Shown here: positions 1 to 18,310 of the stretch, piece after piece
How the letters are laid out: the number at the start of each line of letters is the position of its first letter
Position numbering within the stretch: position 1 is the stretch's first letter
Made by a program: the position numbers and the translations under genes
Source of the DNA: Promethearchaeota archaeon
GTDB lineage: Archaea; Asgardarchaeota; Lokiarchaeia; Sigyniarchaeales; SOKP01
Assembly (NCBI GenBank): GCA_048941015.1
Contig: JBHLNZ010000063.1
Location: 1-18,310 of the forward strand
DNA: 18,310 nt
Direction of reading: 5' to 3'
Notes under the pieces: generated by a model
Told to the model about the DNA's origin: nothing
What the model saw: the letters and a program-made list of their open reading frames with translations, nothing else
The model's database searches: none

Positions 1-1082
1 GGAATTTCTCTGTAGTCTTTAACAGCGAAAAACTTTCCATTTCCTGCTTTAGCAATTTCTTTACAAGTATCTATCCCACGGTCAGCATCATTTTCAGCAG
101 GCATACCAATTACATGTAGTTTAGGAAACTTTTTTGCTAATGGAATAGGATCACTACCTCTATTATAATTTCCATCTGAAATTAAGATTGCAAATTTATT
201 TCTTGCACTCGCTTTCACTTTATTCAATTCATTTAATCCTTTCTCTAAACCAATATAAATATTAGTAAAACCAACTGCTTCAGAATCAAGAATCTCATCT
301 ATAATAGTTGTAATCTCTTTTTTCTTATCTATTGGTTTTAGAACCATTGCTGTAGAATTAAATAAGATTATACTATAATCCTCCTTTTCCATGTTATAAG
401 CTAAAACTGATGTTGTTAGGGCCGCATTTAATAAAAGTTTTCCATACATACTTCCACTTGTATCAAGAATTAAAATAACTTTCCTTTTTTGTTGTTTTCT
501 TCTAATTCCATAGATATCCTTATAAGTTAAAGTCTTATTATAAACTTTTAAAGGGTTATGTTGAATAGTTTCATCCAAATCAAATTCAGGCATTCCAATT
601 TCATAATAGGGTACAACTTTCTTTATTTGACCTCTTATACCTTTACTTGTAATCTTTAATGAAGTGTTTAATATACTTTGTCTTGCTAATCTCCTAAAAA
701 TTTTTTTATATTTCTCTCCAATCGGACGCCTTATGAAAAAATACACTTCAGGCATAGACGTACCTGATTCCTTAGCCTTTTCAGTGAAAAACTTTACTCC
801 TTCATCACAATCAAGAGCGTCGGTTGCGGCATAAACATTTGATTTAAGCAGCCCCATAATTGCTTCAAGGTTTTTATATTGTATTGCTAAATAAGTTAAT
901 TCTTTAATTTGTTTATAATCTAAAGTATTTGCCAAATTACGATAATAATCTGGTTTTTTCTTTTTTTTCCGAATTATTTCATAACGTAAAATATCCTTAT
1001 CAGGGGGTCTGTCTGCAAGTCTAACGTGAAGCCTACCACTCTCAATCTCTTCGGAATTTTCTTTAGAGAAATCATCGATTAT
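1..1082 (-). CDS. VWA (von Willebrand factor A) domain protein, MoxR partner; 3' end lies beyond the window start; start codon uncertain
   Basis: Absent from the ORF track, translated by hand. The frame is open from about 1097 to base 1: ...IDDFSKENSEEIESGRLHVRLAD...VILILDTSGSMYG (MIDAS DxSxS, 464-450)...GFTNI...FAILISDGNYNRG...LHVIGMP...CKEIAKAGNGKF. The first in-frame TTG is at 935 and the first ATG at 857. An in-frame ATA at 1082 overlaps the MoxR stop codon. Confidence 0.88.
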   Translation of the reverse strand, partial: MIDDFSKENSEEIESGRLHVRLADRPPDKDILRYEIIRKKKKKPDYYRNLANTLDYKQIKELTYLAIQYKNLEAIMGLLKSNVYAATDALDCDEGVKFFTEKAKESGTSMPEVYFFIRRPIGEKYKKIFRRLARQSILNTSLKITSKGIRGQIKKVVPYYEIGMPEFDLDETIQHNPLKVYNKTLTYKDIYGIRRKQQKRKVILILDTSGSMYGKLLLNAALTTSVLAYNMEKEDYSIILFNSTAMVLKPIDKKKEITTIIDEILDSEAVGFTNIYIGLEKGLNELNKVKASARNKFAILISDGNYNRGSDPIPLAKKFPKLHVIGMPAENDADRGIDTCKEIAKAGNGKFFAVKDYREI

Positions 1083-1945
1083 TAAAAATCCAACTTATTT
1101 AGAACAGACAAAACAATATCAGTAATTATTTCCGTCTTGGATTTTGTGATACCATCTTCAAGTTCGATCTTGTTATAGAGTGCCATTATCGCGGAATCAA
1201 TCCAATTTTTTGAGCTTTTTTCTAATCCTGAATTTCGAATTAATGCCGCTAAATCAATTCCTCCTCTAATGGAGCTTCCTCTACGTATTGATGTGATATT
1301 CCTTGTGACTTGAATGATAGACTGGCAAATTTTAGCAATCTTTTCGCCATTATCTCCATCTAAATCCGCTTCGTTTTTAATAATCTTTATCTCTTCTTCC
1401 GGAGATTGGTAATCTAATTTAATCCAAATGAACCTATCTTTAAGTGCTTCTCCTAGTACAGTGGTTCCAACATGAGCAGTTGGATTTAATGTGGCAAGTA
1501 CAAAGAAATCTTTATGAGCATGAATCGTTTTTAATTTTGGTATTTCAAGAATTTTCTCATCTAGTGAAGTTAAAAGGGAATTTTGAGTGCTTTCTGGCAT
1601 TCTATTGATTTCATTTATAAAAAGACAACCACCTTGTTTCATAGCTGATGTTAAAGGTCCATAAACATATGAATCTTCAATATAACCTTTTGAAATTACT
1701 AAAGGAGGATCAAAATAACCAATTAAATTATGGGGCAATGTATCTTCTGAACAGTCTATTCTGTAAAAATTTGTATCATAATAAGAAGCGACCGCTTTTG
1801 CTATAGTTGTTTTTCCTACTCCAACTTCGCCTTCTATCAAAATATTTTTTCCAACTGATCTTGCTAAGATAATTTTAGTTAATTCCTCTTCTCTACCAAT
1901 AATATTATTTTGTTTTTGTATTTCTTGAACAATCTCAGAGGCCAT
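1082..1945 (-). CDS. MoxR-family AAA+ ATPase (AAA_5/CoxD/GvpN-like)
   Basis: IIGREEE N-terminus, Walker A GEVGVGKTT, variant Walker B CLFINEINR, LLTSLDE, sensor I VLATLNP, arginine finger ALKDRF, sensor II SIRG. It is directly followed by a VWA gene, the classic MoxR-VWA pairing. Confidence 0.93.
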   Translation of the reverse strand: MASEIVQEIQKQNNIIGREEELTKIILARSVGKNILIEGEVGVGKTTIAKAVASYYDTNFYRIDCSEDTLPHNLIGYFDPPLVISKGYIEDSYVYGPLTSAMKQGGCLFINEINRMPESTQNSLLTSLDEKILEIPKLKTIHAHKDFFVLATLNPTAHVGTTVLGEALKDRFIWIKLDYQSPEEEIKIIKNEADLDGDNGEKIAKICQSIIQVTRNITSIRRGSSIRGGIDLAALIRNSGLEKSSKNWIDSAIMALYNKIELEDGITKSKTEIITDIVLSVLNKLDF

Positions 1946-2053: not shown

Positions 2054-4111
2054 ATGAAGTTAAAACTAAAAATTAATTCTTGGATTGTCTTTTTATTTAT
2101 TTTTTTAATAATAAGTTTATCGATTATGAATTTGACTTATATAAATTTATCAGTTCAAAAAAGAAATGTTGAAGAAGATTCTCACACAAGATACAATCTT
2201 TCAGATGATGGAGTGGAATTTGATATTTTAGATTTTTGGCAAGAAGAGATTGCGCGCGTAAATAGTACTAATCTTGATATAGTATTTGGTGAGAATGATA
2301 CTATAGAATATACTAATCCTTACTCTAAAATAAAACATGAGTTTACGTCTCAAGAAGTTTATTTTAATTCCCCAAACTGGGTAGATGCAACGCCTGAGAA
2401 TCTAAGATTGCATGGTTATTTGTTATATCCTGAAGTGGTTAATGCAAGTAATCCTGGTTGTCTTTGTATGCATGGATTAAATGAAAAAGCAGAATCTGCT
2501 TTTAAACTTGCATATCCTTATTTAGAAAAAGGATTTATTGTATTATGCCATTCTCACCCCGGACATGGAAAATCAGAAGGAGTCCAACCTAGCCCTAATA
2601 ATATGTATTATCAAGCTGAATATAATCGATCAGCTCATTTTTATTTAACACTATGTGGTGCTATTCAAGGATTAAGGGTTTTAGAGAATATTTCAATTGT
2701 AAATAATTCTCAAATCTTAGTTACTGGAATTTCTTACGGTGGATTTAATGCTATGTGGCTAGCTGGTATATGTGGAGAACGAATTTCAGGTGTAATCCCA
2801 TATGTTGCTATAGGAGATATTGTAAAGAATTTAAAGTACCCGAACAAACTGATATTTTGGATATTAGGGAAAAGTCCTAAAGATATTCCTTCCTCATTTC
2901 AAAATAATCAACTTTTAAGATTCGATCCGATTTATTACTTGAAATCACCAAAAATGCCGCCTATTTTGTGGCAAATTGGAACGAATGATGATTTTTTTCA
3001 TTATAGCTCTATAAAGAGCACATTTGAAGCGGTTAATCATTCAAAGAAGTACCTTCAAATATACGCAAATGAACACCATGGCTTTCCTGGATTTGAAAAT
3101 ACTACAAAATTTTTTATTGATTATATTTTATATAATCACTCTATTCCACCTAATATTACAATTCAAAATTTTAAAAAAAATTGGGAGTTAATAGGAAATA
3201 CAATACAAGTTGATATAGAAACTGAATCCCAAAATGTAATAGGATCTGTGAAAATTTATTATAAATTTATTGATATAATAGGAACTTGCTGGCAAAAGGC
3301 AGAGCTTCGTAAAATAATAAATAATTCTTGGTCGATTACTTTAAACCCTTGGATAATTAATTCTAAACTTGATTTCTATATTACTATTGAATTAGAAGGG
3401 GAAGAAAATGTATGGTTTACGTCAAACATATATTCAGTAGGAATAATGATAAGTAATTATAGTCTTATTTTTTTATTTTTAATACTCTTTTTCATTATTT
3501 CTACACTAGCATTAATTGTCTGGAAGAGATATAACAAAATAGAATCATTATCGGATAAACAAATTAAAGTTAAAGCTAATGATTATATCAATAAAGAATT
3601 AGCATTTTTAGGTATTACAGAGTCCTTATTCTATATCTCGTTGATTTTACCTTGGATCTCATATCAAAGTGGAAGTGTAAATTTTAGCCATATTTATTTT
3701 TTTAATAATTTCTTTACTTGGAAATTGTTTATTGGAGCGATTTCACAAATATCAACGGCACTTTTTATTATAGGTTGGATAATTTATTCTTTTTTGAGTT
3801 TATTAAAACCTATAATCTCTGGAATTATCAAAATTATTTACCCAATTTTCATTTTAGTCTCATTCAGCATTATTGTTGAATCTACTGGGATTGCAAGTGA
3901 TCAATCCTTACTATCGAACTTTGGAATGATTTATCCTAGTTTTGGTTTATTTTTAATGATAGCAGCTTCAACCTTAACAATTATTATTGGGATTTGGAAA
4001 AGGAAATATGAAAATAAGCTTGGAATAAAGAAAAAAAAGAGACTTGAATTAAAAAATGTTTTTAAAAAGATTATACAACGATGGCAAATGTGGAAGAGGA
4101 ATAATATTTAA
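2054..4111 (+). CDS. Membrane-anchored alpha/beta-fold serine hydrolase (acetylxylan esterase/PqaA/S9-like) with a C-terminal multi-TM domain
   Basis: N-terminal hydrophobic anchor, LHGYLLYP...CLCMHG, PGHGKSEG, nucleophile elbow GISYGG, acid GTNDDFF, His in NEHHGF. A beta-rich domain and about 5 TM helices follow, and there are many N-x-S/T sequons. ATG at 2054 is preferred over TTG at 2048. Confidence 0.82.
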   Translation: MKLKLKINSWIVFLFIFLIISLSIMNLTYINLSVQKRNVEEDSHTRYNLSDDGVEFDILDFWQEEIARVNSTNLDIVFGENDTIEYTNPYSKIKHEFTSQEVYFNSPNWVDATPENLRLHGYLLYPEVVNASNPGCLCMHGLNEKAESAFKLAYPYLEKGFIVLCHSHPGHGKSEGVQPSPNNMYYQAEYNRSAHFYLTLCGAIQGLRVLENISIVNNSQILVTGISYGGFNAMWLAGICGERISGVIPYVAIGDIVKNLKYPNKLIFWILGKSPKDIPSSFQNNQLLRFDPIYYLKSPKMPPILWQIGTNDDFFHYSSIKSTFEAVNHSKKYLQIYANEHHGFPGFENTTKFFIDYILYNHSIPPNITIQNFKKNWELIGNTIQVDIETESQNVIGSVKIYYKFIDIIGTCWQKAELRKIINNSWSITLNPWIINSKLDFYITIELEGEENVWFTSNIYSVGIMISNYSLIFLFLILFFIISTLALIVWKRYNKIESLSDKQIKVKANDYINKELAFLGITESLFYISLILPWISYQSGSVNFSHIYFFNNFFTWKLFIGAISQISTALFIIGWIIYSFLSLLKPIISGIIKIIYPIFILVSFSIIVESTGIASDQSLLSNFGMIYPSFGLFLMIAASTLTIIIGIWKRKYENKLGIKKKKRLELKNVFKKIIQRWQMWKRNNI

Positions 4112-4924
4112 CAAATAGAATAGAATGAATAAAAATCCACAAAAAGTTAGAATTAAAAAAATAAGATCATTGGCTTTATAGTTCACTCGTATTAAATTTG
4201 TTCTTTTTTTATATAACCCAAAACATCTGTTTTCCATTGATATAGAAGAAATATGACCTTTGCGAAGTACTGACACCAATGTTGTTACCAACCTTTCAAA
4301 AATTAATTTATAAGCTTTTTTCACTGTATTTACTTTTTCAAGACCAAAACCCCGAGCTCTTTGAGCTAATGCTATTGTTTTAGCTTCTTCTTCTATAGTA
4401 GGGATATATTTTATTCCAACCATAAAAGAAAAGCAATATTTGTATGGAATTTTTAATCTTATAAGCGAGTATACAAAATCTTTCATATCTGTTGTATTAG
4501 AGTAAATTATCGCAGAAGTATATAAAGTTAAAATTATTAAAAAAGACCTTAAAGCGAAATATACAGCTAATCTTCTTATAGGTAAAAATGGGAGGTTAAA
4601 AAGGTAAAAAAGAACAATTTCATTTTCATTAGGAATAGCATTAAAGAAGATATTTAGTATAACGCTAAAAATCAGTACAATAATAATAAATCTCAATTTT
4701 CTTACTAAATTTTTAAGAGAGATATTACTTAATAATGCAAGTATTAACAATAATAATAAAACTAAAGCTAACAACAGGATACTGTTTATTAAAAATAATG
4801 AAATTGTTAACAAGATTAAAAAAATTAATTTTGAAATTGGATTTAAGTTATGCATTATAGATATTCCTGGAAAATAAGCAAATGTATACCTTTTATGATC
4901 TAATATATTTCTTTTTCTTTTCAT
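4049..4924 (-). CDS. ecfT: ECF transporter transmembrane T component
   Basis: SIMHNLNPISKL N-terminal motif, TTDMKDFVYSL, KYIPTIEEEAKTIALAQRARG (first X-R-X motif), SMENRCF (second motif). Adjacent to the ECF ATPase and S component. Confidence 0.93.
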   Translation of the reverse strand: MKRKRNILDHKRYTFAYFPGISIMHNLNPISKLIFLILLTISLFLINSILLLALVLLLLLILALLSNISLKNLVRKLRFIIIVLIFSVILNIFFNAIPNENEIVLFYLFNLPFLPIRRLAVYFALRSFLIILTLYTSAIIYSNTTDMKDFVYSLIRLKIPYKYCFSFMVGIKYIPTIEEEAKTIALAQRARGFGLEKVNTVKKAYKLIFERLVTTLVSVLRKGHISSISMENRCFGLYKKRTNLIRVNYKANDLIFLILTFCGFLFILFYLLNIIPLPHLPSLYNLFKNIF

Positions 4925-6745
4925 TTATTCAAATTCTCTTTTTAATCTTTCATTAATCTTTTCTAGAAGTATAATAGGTCCTAAATTCTTATGTCTAAGA
5001 AAATAATTGCTATTTATATCATAATCTCGTAATGAACCGTCCTTATTTAGTTCTATAATCCTTTTTGTATATTTAAGTAAAAGATGATAATCGTGAGAAG
5101 AAATTATTATAGTTTTACCTCTCTTATTTTCTATATATAATGTTTCTATTAAGGAATCTATTGTTTTTTGATCCTGCCCTATAAAAGGTTCATCAAGTAA
5201 AATTATATCTGGATTATAGACAAAAATAGAGCTTAAATTTAATCTTCTTTTTTGGCCCCAACTTAGTTTAAATGGATTTTTGAATTCACTTTCATTTCCA
5301 ATTAGAGTCTTTAATTTTGAAAAGTATTTTTCGCTAACCTCTTTTAAAGTACCAAAATTCTTAGGTGCATAGAGAATTTCATCTTTTATGGTTGATTTAA
5401 AGATCATACTTTCGGGGTTTTGAAAAATAAAACCAACGTATTTTGCATATGAGTAAGGATCAATTTCCTCTAAATATTGATTATTAAATAGTATCTTTCC
5501 AGAACTAGGAGTATATAGATTTGCTAATAGATACAATAATGTTGTCTTCCCTGAACCATTTGGACCTACAAGACCAATAAAATCTCCCTTTTGAATTTTT
5601 ATAGATAAATTATTTATTGCTTTGATGCCGTTATTAGGATATTCAAATGATAATTTCTTTGTTTCAATTATAATTTCATCCTTCTCATCGGAATTTGCAT
5701 TTCTTCCTTTGATATCATTCGGAGCAAAAAATCTATTCCTTTTTAAGGTTTCAATATATAGTTCTTTAAAATCAATTTTCTCTTCAAATTCAGAATATTT
5801 TTTTAATGCTTTAGGTTTAATTTCCTTATCTATGAGAATTTTGAGCAGACTATTTAACTGATTTTGACTCATTTTAGATATTATTTCTAAAAGATCTTGA
5901 AAATTTGAAGGATTACCATATTTTTGAGTATTGGTATTAAATTTCTTAAAATCATTAAATAAGTCTATTATCCAGGGCACTCTAACGTTGAAATCCTTTA
6001 ATTGATCAAATTTTTCGAATAATATTTCATTAATTGTTCCTTGTAATCCAATTTTGCCATTATCATCTAAAACGATAATTTTATCTGCAATATCTATAAC
6101 ACGTGATAACCTATGCTCTATTATAACTAATGTAAGAAGAAATTCCTTGGAATTTATCAACTTTTTTAAACGATTTAATAACAAGCTTTCTGAATGTTGA
6201 TCTAGAAAGGCAATAGGCTCATCTAAAATCAAAATTTTAGGCTCCATTGCTAAAAAAGAACTTAATATTGTTAGCTGTTTTTGCCCTCCGCTAAGTTGAT
6301 CTATATCTCTATCTAATAAGTGGTCGATCTCCATGAATTTTGAAACTTTTTTTACTCTTTCTCTAATTTCATTTTCATTATAGTTTAGATTTTCGAGTCC
6401 GAAAGCAATCTCATCTTTTACAGTAAAAGTTGTTAATTGATCCAGAGGATTCTGTTTTACTAAACCAACTTTTTTACAAATTTCTGTGAAATTATAATCC
6501 CATATACTTTTATTAAAAATTTGGATCTCTCCTTTAAAATAACCCTTTTGTCTCCATGGAATGATTCCATTCATAGCATAGGAAAGAGTTGATTTACCAC
6601 TTCCACTAGGACCTGCTAAAATCAAAACCTCTCCTTCATTAAGATTGAAACTTATATCTGAAACTGCTGGTTTTTCTGTTTCATCTGTACCATAAATGAA
6701 TGAGAAATTTTTAAAAGAAATAGCATTTTTATACGTGGAGGAAAT
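4925..6745 (-). CDS. ecfA: ECF transporter duplicated ATPase (A-A' fusion); probable ATT start at 6745
   Basis: Two ABC cassettes: GPSGSGKST/QNP/LSGGQKQ/ILILDEP/IIEHR and GPNGSGKTT/FQNPE/LSWGQKRR/ILLDEP/SSHD. The frame extends 40 codons above the TTG at 6625 and encodes the ABC N-terminal strands (AISFKNFSFIY...PAVSDISFNLNEGEVL). SD GGGGTGA lies 6 nt before ATT. Confidence 0.93.
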   Translation of the reverse strand: MSSTYKNAISFKNFSFIYGTDETEKPAVSDISFNLNEGEVLILAGPSGSGKSTLSYAMNGIIPWRQKGYFKGEIQIFNKSIWDYNFTEICKKVGLVKQNPLDQLTTFTVKDEIAFGLENLNYNENEIRERVKKVSKFMEIDHLLDRDIDQLSGGQKQLTILSSFLAMEPKILILDEPIAFLDQHSESLLLNRLKKLINSKEFLLTLVIIEHRLSRVIDIADKIIVLDDNGKIGLQGTINEILFEKFDQLKDFNVRVPWIIDLFNDFKKFNTNTQKYGNPSNFQDLLEIISKMSQNQLNSLLKILIDKEIKPKALKKYSEFEEKIDFKELYIETLKRNRFFAPNDIKGRNANSDEKDEIIIETKKLSFEYPNNGIKAINNLSIKIQKGDFIGLVGPNGSGKTTLLYLLANLYTPSSGKILFNNQYLEEIDPYSYAKYVGFIFQNPESMIFKSTIKDEILYAPKNFGTLKEVSEKYFSKLKTLIGNESEFKNPFKLSWGQKRRLNLSSIFVYNPDIILLDEPFIGQDQKTIDSLIETLYIENKRGKTIIISSHDYHLLLKYTKRIIELNKDGSLRDYDINSNYFLRHKNLGPIILLEKINERLKREFE

Positions 6746-6760
6746 ATGAATTCACCCCTA

Positions 6761-7405
6761 TTAAAAAGTTGTTGGAACTCCTGCTTTAATTAGATAGTTT
6801 TTTACTAACCTGCCTAATAGACCAGTTATAAAAATACCTGAAATAAAAGCAAAAGCAAAAGCTAAAACCCATAATGTCCAATGCAAATACCATCGCATAT
6901 TTATTATCCAAAAGAAAGGAGCTTGAAAAAAATTACCTATACCTCCTGCTATTCCCCATCCCAATTTTGTCTCACCCTCTCCTATCTTTTCCATAATAAA
7001 AAAGCCCCCTGCTAAACAAAATCCTTCGATAAGGTTAACAAGAATGATAATAACGCTCCAAGGATCACCTAACAAAAATTCTAAAAGACCCTTGGATATC
7101 ATAGTAAAAATAATATTTTGTTTTTTTCTAGTTAGACCATATACAATCGAAGCCCACATCACGTGATGTCCACTTACCAATTGAGTGCCACCCGTTAGAG
7201 GATACCAAACTTTTATTAATAAGCTAAAGGGTATTAGACTTGAAATAAATCCTCCTAATACTCCAATAATTGAAGAATATAATAGATCCAAAAGTGATAG
7301 TTTAATTTTTCTATCTTGACCCATTCCAGTCGCTTTATAATCTTTTTCAGCATCTTGTTTATCTAAATCGCTGGCTTTTCTAATAGTTGAATTCAAGTTG
7401 TTCAT
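6761..7405 (-). CDS. ECF transporter substrate-specific S component (group I, YkoE/HtsT/MtsT-like; substrate unknown)
   Basis: About 6 glycine-rich TM helices in about 180 aa, LLDLLYSSIIGVLGG start, KGLLEFLLG, and terminal LLGRLVKNYLIKAGV typical of group I S components. Lies immediately upstream of ecfA and ecfT. Confidence 0.85.
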   Translation of the reverse strand: MNNLNSTIRKASDLDKQDAEKDYKATGMGQDRKIKLSLLDLLYSSIIGVLGGFISSLIPFSLLIKVWYPLTGGTQLVSGHHVMWASIVYGLTRKKQNIIFTMISKGLLEFLLGDPWSVIIILVNLIEGFCLAGGFFIMEKIGEGETKLGWGIAGGIGNFFQAPFFWIINMRWYLHWTLWVLAFAFAFISGIFITGLLGRLVKNYLIKAGVPTTF

Positions 7406-7422
7406 AAGTTTTTAATCCTCTT

Positions 7423-7953
7423 TTATTGAATTAAGATTGTTTTCAATTCCTTTATTGTATAATGTGTATTTGCTTTATCTGGAATCACTTCATGATCGAC
7501 TACTGATCTTATTGGTCCATCATAAAATAATGGTTGACCGTCTTGCTCATAGGCTAAAATTATTTGATTTGGATAATCTTGAGCTAATTGAATATCTAAT
7601 GGAGTCTCTGCATAATAACCATCTCCTCCTATAAATAAGAATGTCTTAGCATCTTCTTGCAGTATATTTTCTACTTCAAAGATACTCCATAACGAAACTC
7701 CTGAAAATACTAAATCATATTCACGTCCTATAGCATTAACAATATGAAAAGTTTTATCTCTAATCTGTAAATATTTATCTGATTTTAGATCAGAAAAGGT
7801 CAAATCAATTTCATTACTAACTTTACCTTTTATAATTATAGTATTTTGTGATGGGTTTACATCTAAAATAATATAACTATATGTAAATAACCAGAATAGA
7901 GAAATTCCAATACAAATTGATGCAATGAGTAAATAAAAGTTTCTTTTTTCCAT
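7423..7953 (-). CDS. Membrane-anchored molybdopterin-binding (Oxidored_molyb / sulfite-oxidase fold) domain protein lacking the Mo-ligating Cys
   Basis: IIKGKVSNEIDLTFSDL, FSGVSLWSIF, FIGGDGYY, IILAYEQDGQPL, GPIRSVV and IKELKTI match the SO/YedY fold in order. The FHCV position reads FHIV. One N-terminal TM. Confidence 0.82.
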   Translation of the reverse strand: MEKRNFYLLIASICIGISLFWLFTYSYIILDVNPSQNTIIIKGKVSNEIDLTFSDLKSDKYLQIRDKTFHIVNAIGREYDLVFSGVSLWSIFEVENILQEDAKTFLFIGGDGYYAETPLDIQLAQDYPNQIILAYEQDGQPLFYDGPIRSVVDHEVIPDKANTHYTIKELKTILIQ

Positions 7954-7959
7954 TTTTTA

Positions 7960-8850
7960 CTATATAATTTGAACCTCGTATTTTTTCTGAATTATTAATA
8001 AAAAGGAGGATATAAATCCGATTACTATAATAAAATAAATTAGATAACCGTCAATAAATGGTTTTTTTTCTTCATTTCTCAAATCTAGAGCATATGTCCA
8101 AGAAATTGCATGATCTTCATGGGTACCGTCATTCATAATTCCCATATTAAATTTGTAAAGTTTATTCTCATTAAATTGAACGTCATAATTATCGTTATCT
8201 ATTAATTTTCTCCTCATTTCAAGACTGTAAGAATGATTAATAACATAATTATATCCGACTTGAATATCTTCTGTTTCCAAACTAGGATTATACCATCCTG
8301 TTGTCCCAAAACATAAATCACTGCAGTAATATGAAGAACCGTTTGGAGGAGAACTTGATAAGCATGTCCAATCCCAGCAATCTACATTACCACCTCCCAT
8401 CTCAGAGGTATCCATCCCCCCTAAAAAGTAAGCACTAAAATTAGGGACATTAATATTCCAACAAAAGTAAAGTCCATCGTAATAATTACCTCCTAAAGCT
8501 GGAAGAGTGGTATTATCAAGCCATTGACAGAGAATATAAAGATAATTATCGTTCATAACTAAACTTAGATTCATATAACCAATAAAAAATCCAGGAGTCC
8601 CTACTTCGCTTGCTAATGCTACGGTAGTGGAGCCGTTTGTATTAGAAGGATTTGACCAAAATTGTTCTGAAGGTATACCATCTAAATTGATTACAGCATT
8701 TTTTTCATAATAAGGTTTCATATAAGTTATTCCATGAGATTCACCACAGTCTCCCCAACCCCAGTAAGCTGAAATTTGTTGGGGTAAAATTCCTAAAATA
8801 ATAATAAAATTAATGAATCCAAATGAAATAAGAAAATTTCGTGTTCTCAT
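7960..8850 (-). CDS. Secreted, C-terminally anchored DOMON / ethylbenzene-dehydrogenase gamma-like (EB_dh) domain protein, possibly heme-binding
   Basis: Signal peptide (ISA|Y), INLDGIPSEQFW, NDNYLYILCQWLDNT, DGLYFCW, GGMDT (candidate Met ligand), VDCWDW, YSLEMRRKL...YDVQF, HEDHAIS (candidate His ligand). The tail IDGY-TM-KK resembles Loki-CTERM. Confidence 0.75.
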   Translation of the reverse strand: MRTRNFLISFGFINFIIILGILPQQISAYWGWGDCGESHGITYMKPYYEKNAVINLDGIPSEQFWSNPSNTNGSTTVALASEVGTPGFFIGYMNLSLVMNDNYLYILCQWLDNTTLPALGGNYYDGLYFCWNINVPNFSAYFLGGMDTSEMGGGNVDCWDWTCLSSSPPNGSSYYCSDLCFGTTGWYNPSLETEDIQVGYNYVINHSYSLEMRRKLIDNDNYDVQFNENKLYKFNMGIMNDGTHEDHAISWTYALDLRNEEKKPFIDGYLIYFIIVIGFISSFLLIIQKKYEVQII

Positions 8851-8935
8851 CTTTGAAGAACCTAATATGTTGGATTTTTAATTTAATACAAATAAATTAA
8901 AAAAAATTTTAATTTCTGAAAATTTTTAATTATTT

Positions 8936-10120
8936 TTAAGGTATTGGTCCATTATATACTGTTATGTCAATCAAGTTAACATGTGAAATATAAACATCTC
9001 TTGGTCTTCCCGGAACAATTAAATAGAATGGTCCTCTATGATATCCACATATTCGTCTGTATGGCCAGACTGGATCCGTGACTCCTTGACCTGATTCTCC
9101 GAATTCTTGATCAGCATAAACTAAATTCATTATTAGATTTGTTTCTGGCAATGGGACTAATGTATCATTAATTAAATCATGATCGACCCAAGGAGGAGTA
9201 ATCCCGAGGTCAACGTCTGTGTTATTATAAGGATCTTCTTTTTTCCCTCCAAATGGACGAGGACTTGCCCAACCATCTTCGGACCAAACTCTTAAAGTGT
9301 AATTTTTTCCCACTGCTGATGTGTGTGAGATAATTTCACTGATATTTCTCCCCCAATATTGTCGATCAAAGTCCCACCAATCATCTCTTTCATAAGAGTA
9401 TCTGTCAGAATATTCTGAATCAGTCATATTTGTTGGATCAATTACAAATTCAAGCGTATTATTAACTCTAACCTCTACTTTCCAGCTATCTAATACATCA
9501 ATTTCTTCTAGATTGGTTAATGAATTTTGCATATTTTTACCAATGATTGAAAAATTACCCCAAATTTCTCCATAAGGCGAATCTGCTAGCCAAGTCTTAT
9601 TTGCTGCTAATGCTAGAACTATAGGTTCCTCATCACCCTCATACATTTTACTAATTATGTCCCCTGTGCTCATATGAATTACTTCTATTGAGCCTTCTGA
9701 AGATTGCTGTGAAGTAAATGTTAAGTTATATGCAAAATTTGTATCGTATTTTTCTAAAATATCTAGTATATCAACTCCTGTAATATAAAGCCCAGAAATA
9801 GGATCTAAGAAAGTATATGTATAAATTGTTTTTTTATACTCATTAACAAAAGATCCTGAAGGATCTTGATTCTCTTCAATAGCGAGCTGAACCCCTTCTA
9901 AAATATCACCTAAAGTGATAACTATTTGAGTTGTTCCATTATTTAGGATAAATGATGATGCATTTGGTGCTATACTCCAATCCTCAGGTAATCCCCATAA
10001 TAATGTAATTTGAGGTTGTTCTGGAGCTTTTGGTGAAGCAATTATAACAAAACCTAAACCGCCAGCTAGCCCTACAACTGCTATTACTAAAAGACCTAAA
10101 GCTATATCTTTATTTTCCAT
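8936..10120 (-). CDS. Membrane-anchored extracellular protein with two degenerate molybdopterin-binding (SO-fold) domains, about 394 aa
   Basis: The likely start is MENKDIALG at 10120, since the upstream 42 codons cover the promoter. Domain 1: ITGVDILDIL...IVLALAAN...GNFSIIG...LTNLEEIDV. Domain 2: YWGRNISEII...VWSEDGWAS...LVYA...GPFYLIVPGRPRDVYISHVNLIDI. N-terminal TM and many N-glycosylation sequons. Confidence 0.7.
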   Translation of the reverse strand: MENKDIALGLLVIAVVGLAGGLGFVIIASPKAPEQPQITLLWGLPEDWSIAPNASSFILNNGTTQIVITLGDILEGVQLAIEENQDPSGSFVNEYKKTIYTYTFLDPISGLYITGVDILDILEKYDTNFAYNLTFTSQQSSEGSIEVIHMSTGDIISKMYEGDEEPIVLALAANKTWLADSPYGEIWGNFSIIGKNMQNSLTNLEEIDVLDSWKVEVRVNNTLEFVIDPTNMTDSEYSDRYSYERDDWWDFDRQYWGRNISEIISHTSAVGKNYTLRVWSEDGWASPRPFGGKKEDPYNNTDVDLGITPPWVDHDLINDTLVPLPETNLIMNLVYADQEFGESGQGVTDPVWPYRRICGYHRGPFYLIVPGRPRDVYISHVNLIDITVYNGPIP

Positions 10121-10143
10121 TTTTAAGACTTTTAATAGATTTG

Positions 10144-10151
10144 TATTTAAA
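10144..10151 (-). promoter_or_regulatory. Archaeal TATA box candidate (leaderless transcript for the 10120 start)
   Basis: TTTAAATA lies 24-31 nt upstream of the ATG at 10120, and there is no SD before that ATG. Confidence 0.45.
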
Positions 10152-10155
10152 TTAT

Positions 10156-10179
10156 CGATATTACTATATGAACATATCG
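10156..10179. promoter_or_regulatory. Palindromic operator CGATAT-N12-ATATCG (ModE-box-like) upstream of the molybdopterin-fold/ECF operon
   Basis: Perfect 6-bp inverted repeat with a 12-nt spacer, the same geometry as the ModE consensus ATCGnTATATA-N6-TATATAnCGAT. It is flanked by minus-strand TATA candidates TTTAAATA (10144-10151) and TTTTTATA (10190-10197). Confidence 0.5.
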
Positions 10180-10292
10180 TGAAAAATGCTATAAAAAGTT
10201 TATTTCCAAATATTCTTTTATCAACAAAGAAGTATTTTTTCTTCAAGATTAGAATGAAAATAAAAAAGAGGGTAGTTCTTAAAATAATCTAA

Positions 10293-11030
10293 TCATGGCA
10301 TTGTAATTATGTTAGTATTTTCATCCAGATTTATTATTCCCTTTACTGCAAGTTGCTTTATTGTTCTTACTGCCATAATAGGAGGAACATCAAGTAATTT
10401 CTTAAGAACATCGAGTTTCACACTGCTCTCATCCATAATTGTGGCAAGTATAGCGACTTCAGGTATTTCTTCTTCGGAATTTTCAATCAAGAACGTTGTA
10501 AAGTAGTTATTTCTTTTCAGCTGAGTTAACTTTTGATTTAATTCTACCATTTTTTCTTCAGAATAAGTTGTTCTTAGATTTTTTTCACGAGTTTCATTCT
10601 CAATCTTTTTCTGATCTAGCTCAGTTTTCTCTTGTTCTTTTTTTGATATTTTTTCATTGATAGAATTTAATTTTGAAATTAAATCTTCTAATTCCAATTT
10701 TGGCGTTTTGAGATCGTTATCTAATCGTTCTAAATTATTTTTTAAATCTGAAATTTTAGATGTTAATTCATCTTTAGTTGATTTTACAATCTCTATTTTC
10801 TTATCATAATCATCAGATTTAATTTTCAATTCAGTTAATTCAGAATTTTGATTTTCAATATTAATTTCTAATCTTTTAACGTCGTCTTCTTCTGATTTGA
10901 TCATTTTCCAAGTATAACTAAGATTTTGAAGCATATTTTCGTTATTTTTTTGAATTGCCTGTAAATATCCGTCGAAAGAAGTTTCTAACTGTTCAATTAA
11001 ACTAAAAATTTCCTTCAAATTTAAGCTCAT
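10293..11030 (-). CDS. Coiled-coil protein with C-terminal winged-helix domain
   Basis: About 170 aa of K/E/L/N heptads, then PEVAILATIMDESSVKLDVLKKLLDVPPIMAVRTIKQLAVKGIINLDENTNIITM (HTH plus wing). Its ATG overlaps the upstream stop (TAATG). Confidence 0.8.
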   Translation of the reverse strand: MSLNLKEIFSLIEQLETSFDGYLQAIQKNNENMLQNLSYTWKMIKSEEDDVKRLEINIENQNSELTELKIKSDDYDKKIEIVKSTKDELTSKISDLKNNLERLDNDLKTPKLELEDLISKLNSINEKISKKEQEKTELDQKKIENETREKNLRTTYSEEKMVELNQKLTQLKRNNYFTTFLIENSEEEIPEVAILATIMDESSVKLDVLKKLLDVPPIMAVRTIKQLAVKGIINLDENTNIITMP

Positions 11031-11785
11031 TAAAAATCCAACTCCTCCTTTAATGTTATTGTATTTGAATTCTGGTCATAAATAATAGGAGCTTTTTCTT
11101 CTACCAATTTATCTATTATTTTTTTAGCTTGATCTACTCTCATATCAATAGCTAATAAAATATTTCTCAAATCTAAGGAACTTCCTACTTGTAAAGCTCT
11201 AAAGAATTGATAAATTGAAGAATTGATATATTTTTTGTTAATTAATATTTTCATTGCTTTTACTCTATTTTCATAAGACTGGACATATTTCTCCTTTTTA
11301 ATAAAAGTATTATCAAGTTCTTTTTCAAGAGCTTTTAGTTCTTCTTCAAACTTTTCAATTACTCTTGTTATATCGAGAATTTGAATTTCTAATTCTTTTA
11401 ATATAGTTGTTCGACTATTGAGTTCTTCTTTCTTAGTTTGGATTACTTTTCTTGTTTCTTCCAATTCTTGTTGTGTTTCTTGGATTTTATTTAACAGTTC
11501 CTGACGCTGTGAGTCGAGAAAATTATTATCTTCCTCAAATCTTTGAAGATCCCGCTGATTTTGCAAAATTTTGTTTTTGTAATTTTTTATTTTTTCATTA
11601 TTTAATGAGATTGTCTTCATTAAATTATTTTTCTCATTCTCATATTTTTCAATTACTTCTAAAATGTATTCTGGTTGCGTTCTTAATTTTGGGATAAACT
11701 CACTATTCAAACCGCTTATATCTACAATTACAGATGACATTTTCTTTAATGCTGTTTTTGCTTCTAATAAAGGTACTTCACTCAT
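11030..11785 (-). CDS. Coiled-coil protein with C-terminal winged-helix-like domain
   Basis: Long heptad region, then SIYQFFRALQVGSSLDLRNILLAIDMRVDQAKKIIDKLVEEKAPIIYDQNSNTITL. SD AAAGGAGA lies 7 nt upstream of the ATG. Confidence 0.8.
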   Translation of the reverse strand: MSEVPLLEAKTALKKMSSVIVDISGLNSEFIPKLRTQPEYILEVIEKYENEKNNLMKTISLNNEKIKNYKNKILQNQRDLQRFEEDNNFLDSQRQELLNKIQETQQELEETRKVIQTKKEELNSRTTILKELEIQILDITRVIEKFEEELKALEKELDNTFIKKEKYVQSYENRVKAMKILINKKYINSSIYQFFRALQVGSSLDLRNILLAIDMRVDQAKKIIDKLVEEKAPIIYDQNSNTITLKEELDF

Positions 11786-18239: not shown

Positions 18240-18310
18240 TGCGGGAAGGGAGATTTGAACTCCCGAACCCCTACGGGACTGGATTCTGAGTCCAGCGCCT
18301 TTGTCCAGAC
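18240..18310 (-). tRNA. tRNA-Leu(CAG), 5' end beyond the window
   Basis: Reverse complement shows anticodon arm CTGGA-CTCAGAA-TCCAG (anticodon 18288-18286), long variable arm CCCGTAGGG, T arm GGGAG-TTCAAAT-CTCCC, acceptor strand TTCCCGC and discriminator A. No encoded CCA and no anticodon-loop intron. Confidence 0.96.

Follow-up and report, generated by a model that had tools for sequence, protein, structure and literature searches.

Contig JBHLNZ010000063.1 of a Promethearchaeota archaeon (assembly GCA_048941015.1), a member of the Asgard archaea, carries six genes that likely encode a dedicated importer for a ready-made pyranopterin cofactor of tungsten or molybdenum, i.e. metal-loaded molybdopterin, replacing synthesis of the cofactor. 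The contig, called the window below, was analysed over its entire length (18,310 nt; 18.3 kb) and belongs to a 3.59-Mb genome of 144 contigs, 95% complete with 5% contamination. Its six genes combine anchored surface proteins with the fold of sulfite oxidase (SUOX) and a transporter of the energy-coupling factor (ECF) type. An original prediction, made from the sequence of the window, had already proposed SUOX-fold receptors coupled to ECF-driven cofactor import. This reading gains support from the phyletic pattern, from replacement at a single locus, from the distribution of metal-uptake genes, from a control with ThiC, from a gene fusion and from likeness to the pterin-binding protein PruR; the nature of the substrate is deduced from these comparisons.

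Alternation with cofactor synthesis

Predicted users of the cofactor in the window's genome comprise 12 matches to AFOR_N of the aldehyde:ferredoxin oxidoreductases (AFORs), 5 to the Molybdopterin family and one Cys-bearing match to Oxidored_molyb. The same genome, at 95% completeness, gave no match to MoaC, MoeA_N, Mob_synth_C or MoaE. Its only MoCF_biosynth domain is CinA-like, and neither WtpA nor a TupA-like protein was found in it.

This state recurs in other Asgard archaea. The sample comprises 201 genomes, each at least 80% complete and the same for all queries; the S family, named for the S component of the transporter, is counted from matches to the window's S protein or to PF09819, and synthesis from MoaC or MoeA_N. 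AFOR_N occurs in 197 of the genomes, the S family in 83 and synthesis genes in 91. The anticorrelation between S homologues and moa/moe genes, for which the original prediction suggested a test, is pronounced, with just four genomes having both; 31 have neither, among them 22 of one family. MoeA_N is present in just 4 of the 83 S-positive genomes. The two states alternate within nine genera. Among the 48 genomes of family f7, PF09819 is found in 31, MoaC or MoeA in 17, both in one and neither in one; S outnumbers synthesis by 13 to 1 in family f12 and by 10 to 1 in family f21. Metal uptake follows synthesis: a TupA-like protein or WtpA occurs in 78 of the 91 synthesis genomes versus 4 of the 83 S genomes, TupA-like proteins having been added to the count because WtpA alone, present in 17 genomes only, is uninformative. 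Since MoeA and tungstate uptake are both missing where the module is present, whatever is imported must already carry its metal. Genome G196, a closed single contig of 4.36 Mb, has the module and six AFOR matches, with no match to MoaC, MoeA, TupA or WtpA, which removes the objection of assembly gaps for at least one genome.

The replacement is visible at one locus. In the window, the ECF module occupies a slot between a gene pair for coiled-coil proteins (window 10293-11785) and a MoxR gene (window 1082-1945). Five S-negative genomes, including three from the window's genus, have other genes in this slot: those for a TupA-like binding protein, a permease of the TupB type and an ATPase resembling WtpC, together with MoaC, MoaA, MoaE, MoeA, MoaB and MoeA. 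In genome G169 (L055:1316-12884), the ECF/SUOX module and the complete moaC-moaA-moaE-moeA-moaB-moeA operon stand in tandem on the same strand, and MoaC begins directly behind the gene for the T component of the transporter; the slot may be seen here in its ancestral state or in transition. The coiled-coil proteins (251 and 245 amino acids, translationally coupled) adjoin the slot in most relatives, and their genes served as the synteny anchor.

Genomes with neither system include four from the window's genus. In two of them, p394, the first gene of the module, lies at a contig end just past the flanking gene, and a third has a contig that stops directly behind that gene. The class with neither system is thus partly an artefact of assembly, since contigs break at the slot in these genomes. 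In three genomes of this genus (L067, L068 and L069, from G124, G072 and G145), contigs stop inside the first gene of the slot or directly behind it, which suggests that assemblies are broken by polymorphism of the slot within populations and that some genomes falsely appear to have neither system.

A separate situation is found in family f5, where most genomes have AFORs and neither MoaC nor a PF09819-type S component. At two f5 loci (L078:5862-10722 in G137 and L079:5722-10716 in G116), the gene for an anchored tandem SUOX-like protein lies directly upstream of two ABC half-transporters (ABC_membrane plus ABC_tran). The L078 protein has 338 amino acids, no Cys and an Oxidored_molyb match of 26.6 bits, and its gene overlaps that of the first half-transporter. 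The arrangement may be a third, non-orthologous route to the same job.

SUOX-fold surface proteins and their ECF transporter

The six genes of the module lie head-to-tail on the minus strand and encode p394, a DOMON protein, so176, the S component, a fused A-A' ATPase and the T component, with intergenic gaps of 85, 6, 17, 15 and 0 nt, as first described. The order is kept in 36 species-level Asgard loci and in every locus with enough sequence (the DOMON gene where present), a conservation that appears far beyond chance. Because the DOMON gene is missing from six loci, the core of the module consists of the two SUOX-fold proteins and the transporter.

The largest surface protein, p394 (8936-10120, minus strand; 394 amino acids from the ATG at 10120), is predicted to consist of an N-terminal transmembrane anchor and two tandem SUOX-fold domains. 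It has no match in Pfam or NCBIfam, and NCBIfam likewise gave no name for the DOMON protein or the S component. An AlphaFold 2 model built from 26 sequences (predicted local distance difference test, pLDDT, 87.8) contains the two domains, and every Foldseek match of this model at E <= 0.001 is a SUOX-family protein. In VIA-align comparisons, domain 1 (residues ∼50-213) superposes on PruR 7kom with Z 14.3 and a root-mean-square deviation (rmsd) of 1.9 Å over 117 of 134 residues, on chicken sulfite oxidase with Z 14.1 and on 7rkb, 7kp2 and 7kou with Z 13.4-13.8. Domain 2 (residues ∼213-389) superposes on plant sulfite oxidase 1ogp (Z 12.6) and on SorA (Z 12.2). No Cys is conserved among the 26 sequences, and the window's protein carries 11 N-glycosylation sequons. 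The p394 family is small (39 representatives) and is found in every orthologous locus with enough upstream sequence.

The second surface protein, so176 (7423-7953, minus strand), has a predicted transmembrane anchor and a single SUOX-fold domain, matches Pfam Oxidored_molyb with 31.2 bits (cut-off 24) and is always encoded directly upstream of S. Its profile also matches SorA and PruR 7kom weakly. The sole Cys of the window's copy sits in the N-terminal transmembrane helix, and the ectodomain is devoid of Cys in an alignment of 32 sequences. In this alignment, Asn73 is near-invariant and stands in ungapped register with the Mo-ligating Cys of a paralogue encoded on contig 87 of the same genome. 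Taken with the two domains of the p394 model, the Oxidored_molyb match bears out the proposal of three Cys-less SUOX-fold domains on membrane anchors, and the fold search that had been suggested places PruR among their closest solved structures.

PruR is a small, secreted, Cys-less protein of the SUOX fold that binds pterins at the site matching that of the molybdenum cofactor (Moco) and has no enzymatic role (PMC11194511). The domains studied here have no Pro-Trp motif, and the genes downstream encode ECF components, with no DcpA-type GGDEF/EAL partner. They are not PruR members, but plausibly act likewise as binders. By this analogy, p394 would be the outer protein that captures the cofactor and so176 the receptor that hands it over.

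The contig-87 paralogue (L001:1015-2067) is the sole canonical Cys-bearing SUOX-family enzyme of the genome (141 bits) and is encoded by a gene separate from the module. It is fused to a C-terminal domain with several transmembrane segments, as in MsrP-MsrQ-like fusions, and requires Moco although the genome has no synthesis pathway for it.

By its sequence matches, the transporter is a complete dedicated (group I) ECF system, with S, two EcfA-type ATPase domains and EcfT in one operon, in agreement with the first description of the window. The S component (6761-7405, minus strand; 214 amino acids) matches PF09819, the YkoE family, with 30.9 bits (cut-off 25.2); among solved structures its profile matches only YkoE 5EDL, distantly (E 4.7e-7), and its homologues are 54-83% identical across 36 species-level Asgard genomes. 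The fused, YkoD-like EcfA-EcfA' ATPase (4925-6745, minus strand) matches TIGR04521 with 352 bits and contains two ABC_tran stretches. The CbiQ-family T component (4049-4924, minus strand) matches PF02361 with 89.9 bits and TIGR02454 with 75.4 bits, and its gene abuts that of the ATPase.

The start of the ATPase gene is unusual. Its frame is open to 6751 and contains no ATG, GTG or TTG before the Walker A motif, apart from TTG 6625, the earliest start listed, just a few residues ahead of it. Alignments of the orthologues run from residue 1, and their first codons are likewise ATT, ATA or ATC, preceded by a Shine-Dalgarno sequence similar to GGTGA, so that the ATT start at 6745 holds, and with it the gap figures given above. 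The starts in the window (6745-6760) and in six orthologues (L017:10648, L018:6795, L026:10651, L041:4562, L046:10623 and L048:10643) all follow this pattern, with ATT, ATA or ATC just after GGTGA or AGTGA. Initiation at a non-canonical AUH codon seems to be conserved for this gene.

A physical link between receptor and transporter is indicated by gene fusion. In at least three other Asgard families (f7, f12 and f21), distant S homologues have ∼350 amino acids and consist of S, an extra transmembrane helix and a C-terminal beta domain homologous to so176 (hhalign probability 90.9%, E 1.2e-6); one cluster of such proteins is already annotated with PF00174 and PF09819. The AlphaFold model of a fused S (pLDDT 82.7) is matched by Foldseek to YkoE 5EDL (TM-score 0.80, rmsd 2.2 Å) and, at probability 1.0, to SorA, YedY and PruR. 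Assuming that S components end in the cytoplasm, the extra helix would put the fused domain outside the cell. Such fusions speak for physical cooperation between so176 and S. SUOX-fold genes adjoin S in 36 of 36 loci, so that the neighbourhood survey originally suggested also favours the pairing. Co-folding of S with a SUOX-fold protein, likewise suggested and run for so176, lends weak support, with a score of 0.50 compared with 0.00 for the best of three controls. Solved complexes passed the mark in 58 of 80 cases and mismatched pairs in 2 of 110; among those passing, only 7 of the solved complexes scored 0.60 or less, as did both mismatches. At least 45% of the contacts agree between runs, and the pLDDT of the partner is at least 84.

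Proteins encoded upstream of two fused S components were compared with the surface proteins of the window. At L056, the 368-amino-acid protein encoded upstream reaches an hhalign probability of 12.7% against p394. At L057:7698-9356 (family f7, G111), a calcineurin-like phosphoesterase protein of 552 amino acids is encoded directly upstream of the fused S-SUOX gene; it has a weak Oxidored_molyb match of 22.3 bits, and an hhalign probability of 2.3% against so176. As a speculation, this phosphoesterase, if outward-facing, could trim the cofactor, where it is a dinucleotide, ahead of import.

The DOMON protein and the operator

The module also encodes a DOMON/EB_dh-type protein (7960-8850, minus strand; 296 amino acids) with hydrophobic segments at both termini. 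Its assignment, proposed from the sequence of the window, is sustained at the level of the family, since the window's copy alone scores 20.8 bits against EB_dh, under the cut-off of 33.3, while EB_dh is matched by 22 of 22 family members, with a best E of 1.1e-10, and DOMON by 8 of 22. The invariant residues include His39, Met146 and His247, which are candidate haem ligands only. The gene is missing from six orthologous loci, including the closest relative (L017), and the protein is proposed to be an optional accessory that possibly binds haem.

Upstream of p394, an operator-like palindrome CGATAT-N12-ATATCG resembling a ModE box lies at 10156-10179. It has one match in the window, where 0.08 is expected, and the pattern CGWTAT-N12-ATAWCG recurs at orthologous positions upstream of p394 orthologues. 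The ModE box of Methanosarcina, RTTATGT-N8-RCATAAY, has been validated experimentally (PMC12327845). It is matched with at most two mismatches by 12 of 22 orthologous upstream regions, one of them perfectly, compared with 0.75 on average and at most 3 in shuffled sequences. Within the genome, the exact palindrome occurs twice, which equals the count of a reversed-pattern control, and the second site is inside an acetoacetate decarboxylase gene, so that no regulon was drawn. Support for the operator comes from conservation across species only. The ModE-like palindrome noticed at the outset therefore stands as an element that is present and conserved among orthologues; its likeness to ModE boxes is poorer in the window's own copy, with four mismatches, and the 95% complete genome yielded no TOBE match and no ModE with a molybdate-binding domain. 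A stand-alone helix-turn-helix protein of 136 amino acids (L061:1495-1905, contig 46 of the same genome), similar to the ModE N-terminal domain (49 bits, cut-off 98.5), is a candidate binder of this palindrome. The conservation indicates that the element is real. Elsewhere in the window, the end of the contig truncates a tRNA gene at 18240-18310, which matches Rfam tRNA with 30.2 bits.

Mechanism, alternatives and known systems

From comparative genomics, we infer an inward route for the cofactor. Three SUOX-fold domains without metal-ligating Cys, two on p394 and one on so176, would be displayed on the outer face of the membrane by their N-terminal anchors and would bind the cofactor reversibly, as PruR does with pterins. 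The cofactor would then be handed by so176 to the YkoE-type S component and driven into the cell by the A-A' double ATPase together with the T component. Its users there would be the 12 members of the AFOR family, the SUOX enzyme that has the Cys and further molybdopterin enzymes. The optional DOMON protein perhaps keeps the oxygen-labile cofactor reduced, and the ModE-box-like operator may control the operon.

Several points weigh against import of a metal-loaded cofactor. Free Moco is very labile. AFORs use the bis-pterin form, to which an imported cofactor would need to be converted. A literature search returned no paper on Moco import by prokaryotes, through an ECF transporter or otherwise, or on Moco auxotrophy in Asgard archaea. 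The link with synthesis is not absolute, as seen from the four genomes with both systems and the 31 with neither. Relatives are not independent, so that Fisher values for the co-occurrence exaggerate its significance, and most genomes are metagenome-assembled, which makes single absences soft, a weakness offset by the closed G196 genome and by the repetition of the pattern. The sole characterised member of the PF09819 family binds thiamine. The operator of the window has the four mismatches mentioned above, and the candidate regulator is devoid of a molybdate-binding domain. Finally, the cleft of PruR is truncated and takes simple pterins, not Moco, and the same could hold for the SUOX-fold domains of the module (PMC11194511).

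This last point introduces the main rival explanation, an unlikely one, in which the module imports another pterin or a precursor, such as a simple pterin, a folate or methanopterin precursor, cyclic pyranopterin monophosphate or metal-free molybdopterin. PruR, one of the best matches to the receptor domain, binds neopterin and monapterin in a cleft too short for Moco (PMC11194511), and so176 is as small as PruR. However, it is specifically with the Moco pathway and a tungstate transporter that the module alternates at one locus. A precursor would still require MoaD/E and MoeA, whereas MoaE and MoeA_N were not found in the window's genome and MoeA_N is so rare among S-positive genomes.

A quite improbable explanation, which widens the export alternative of the original prediction, is that the genes form an extracellular module for redox chemistry or sensing, in which SUOX-fold domains with a ligand other than Cys cooperate with DOMON haem, the ECF transporter exporting or inserting the cofactor or taking up a metal oxyanion. 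Haem is common in DOMON/EB_dh domains that take part in electron transfer outside the cytoplasm, ECF-like components are implicated in flavin export in Listeria, and domain 2 of p394 retains a canonical-looking ‘LIVPGR’ motif. Yet export is rejected, and the alternative finds no support, because S-positive genomes lack the pathway and make nothing to export; a metal oxyanion, for its part, would be useless without MoeA. In addition, the DOMON gene is dispensed with in six orthologous loci, and the SUOX-fold domains revealed no conserved metal ligand, be it Cys or another residue.

The alternation could also be accidental, if the ECF module and the Moco operon shared an insertion hot spot with no functional tie. 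The slot is variable and often breaks assemblies, and the common history of relatives inflates the statistics. Such a coincidence is nevertheless very improbable, given that distant families show the same complementarity with a different, fused S component at other loci, that AFORs are kept in both states and that the proteins of the module have a Moco-binding fold.

Import of thiamine or hydroxymethylpyrimidine (HMP) by a YkoEDC-type transporter, with SUOX-fold genes as mere neighbours, was tried and rejected as hardly credible: S does belong to PF09819 with YkoE as its only solved relative, the fused double ATPase is YkoD-like and several sources label homologues ‘thiamin/hydroxymethylpyrimidine transport permease’, but ThiC, the control for this reading, is unrelated to S, being present in the window's genome and in 21 of 22 S-positive and 24 of 24 S-negative genomes of its family, no thiamine pyrophosphate riboswitch was found at E <= 0.1, and SUOX-fold genes adjoin S throughout the 36 loci and are fused to it in other families. 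Grouping of S with thiamine/HMP components, which would have spoken against the original prediction, is confined to a distant relationship with YkoE.

Import of the ready-made cofactor would have several consequences. Both Moco and its tungsten counterpart are considered too unstable for sharing, and prokaryotic users are assumed to make them. On balance, the module would be the first prokaryotic uptake system for a molybdenum or tungsten pterin cofactor, an ECF transporter that, unlike all those described, uses extracytoplasmic capture domains, recruited from the sulfite oxidase fold. The transporter class is known; the novelty would reside in the proposed substrate, in the association of anchored or fused capture domains with an ECF transporter, in the re-use of the SUOX fold for capture and in the scale of the implied auxotrophy in Asgard archaea, and nothing describing any of these four was found in the literature. 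If the proposal is correct, >40% of the sampled Asgard genomes belong to cofactor auxotrophs, and their central AFORs depend on a cofactor from neighbours, a molecular dependency in the lineage closest to eukaryotes. It would explain why about four in ten of these genomes retain 5-15 AFOR genes although they have neither cofactor synthesis nor tungstate uptake, and would give names to the genes of a missing transport step. The cofactor would join the goods traded in syntrophic communities, and an ECF transporter would be seen to work with dedicated surface receptors. Practical outcomes would be a testable nutritional requirement for the cultivation of Asgard archaea and a tool to deliver Moco into cells.

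Parallels exist in other organisms. Caenorhabditis elegans takes up dietary Moco, and eukaryotic Moco carrier proteins are known; in both cases, as proposed here, ready-made Moco from other organisms is protected on binding proteins. These systems differ in being eukaryotic, with an unknown transporter and unrelated proteins. The sulfite oxidase/YedY (MsrP) molybdoenzymes share the Moco-binding fold (Oxidored_molyb; Z 10-14 to sulfite oxidase, SorA, SoxC and YedY), but have a Mo-ligating Cys and a catalytic partner domain, both of which are missing from the proteins of the module.

PruR from Agrobacterium, Vibrio and Klebsiella (PDB 7kos, 7kom, 7kp2 and 7rkb) is likewise a small, extracytoplasmic, non-catalytic protein of the Cys-less SUOX fold (PMC11194511), and its structures resemble domain 1 of p394 (Z 13-14.3, rmsd 1.9-2.3 Å). 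It has a Trp, within a PW motif, at the position of the Cys, where the domains of the module have Asn or another residue. PruR is soluble and signals to the diguanylate cyclase-phosphodiesterase DcpA, whereas the domains described here are membrane-anchored or in tandem and coupled to a transporter; it binds simple pterins, and their ligand is probably a larger metal cofactor.

YkoEDC from Bacillus subtilis, which transports thiamine/HMP and whose YkoE is PDB 5EDL, resembles the Asgard system in its PF09819-type S component, its fused double ATPase and its CbiQ-type T component, all encoded in a dedicated operon. The S components are distant in sequence (profile match given above), and no thiamine context was found for the Asgard one, ThiC being kept. 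YkoEDC has no SUOX-fold partners, in contrast to the anchored SUOX-fold proteins or fused SUOX-fold domain found here, and only the Asgard transporter has a phyletic pattern tied to Moco synthesis.

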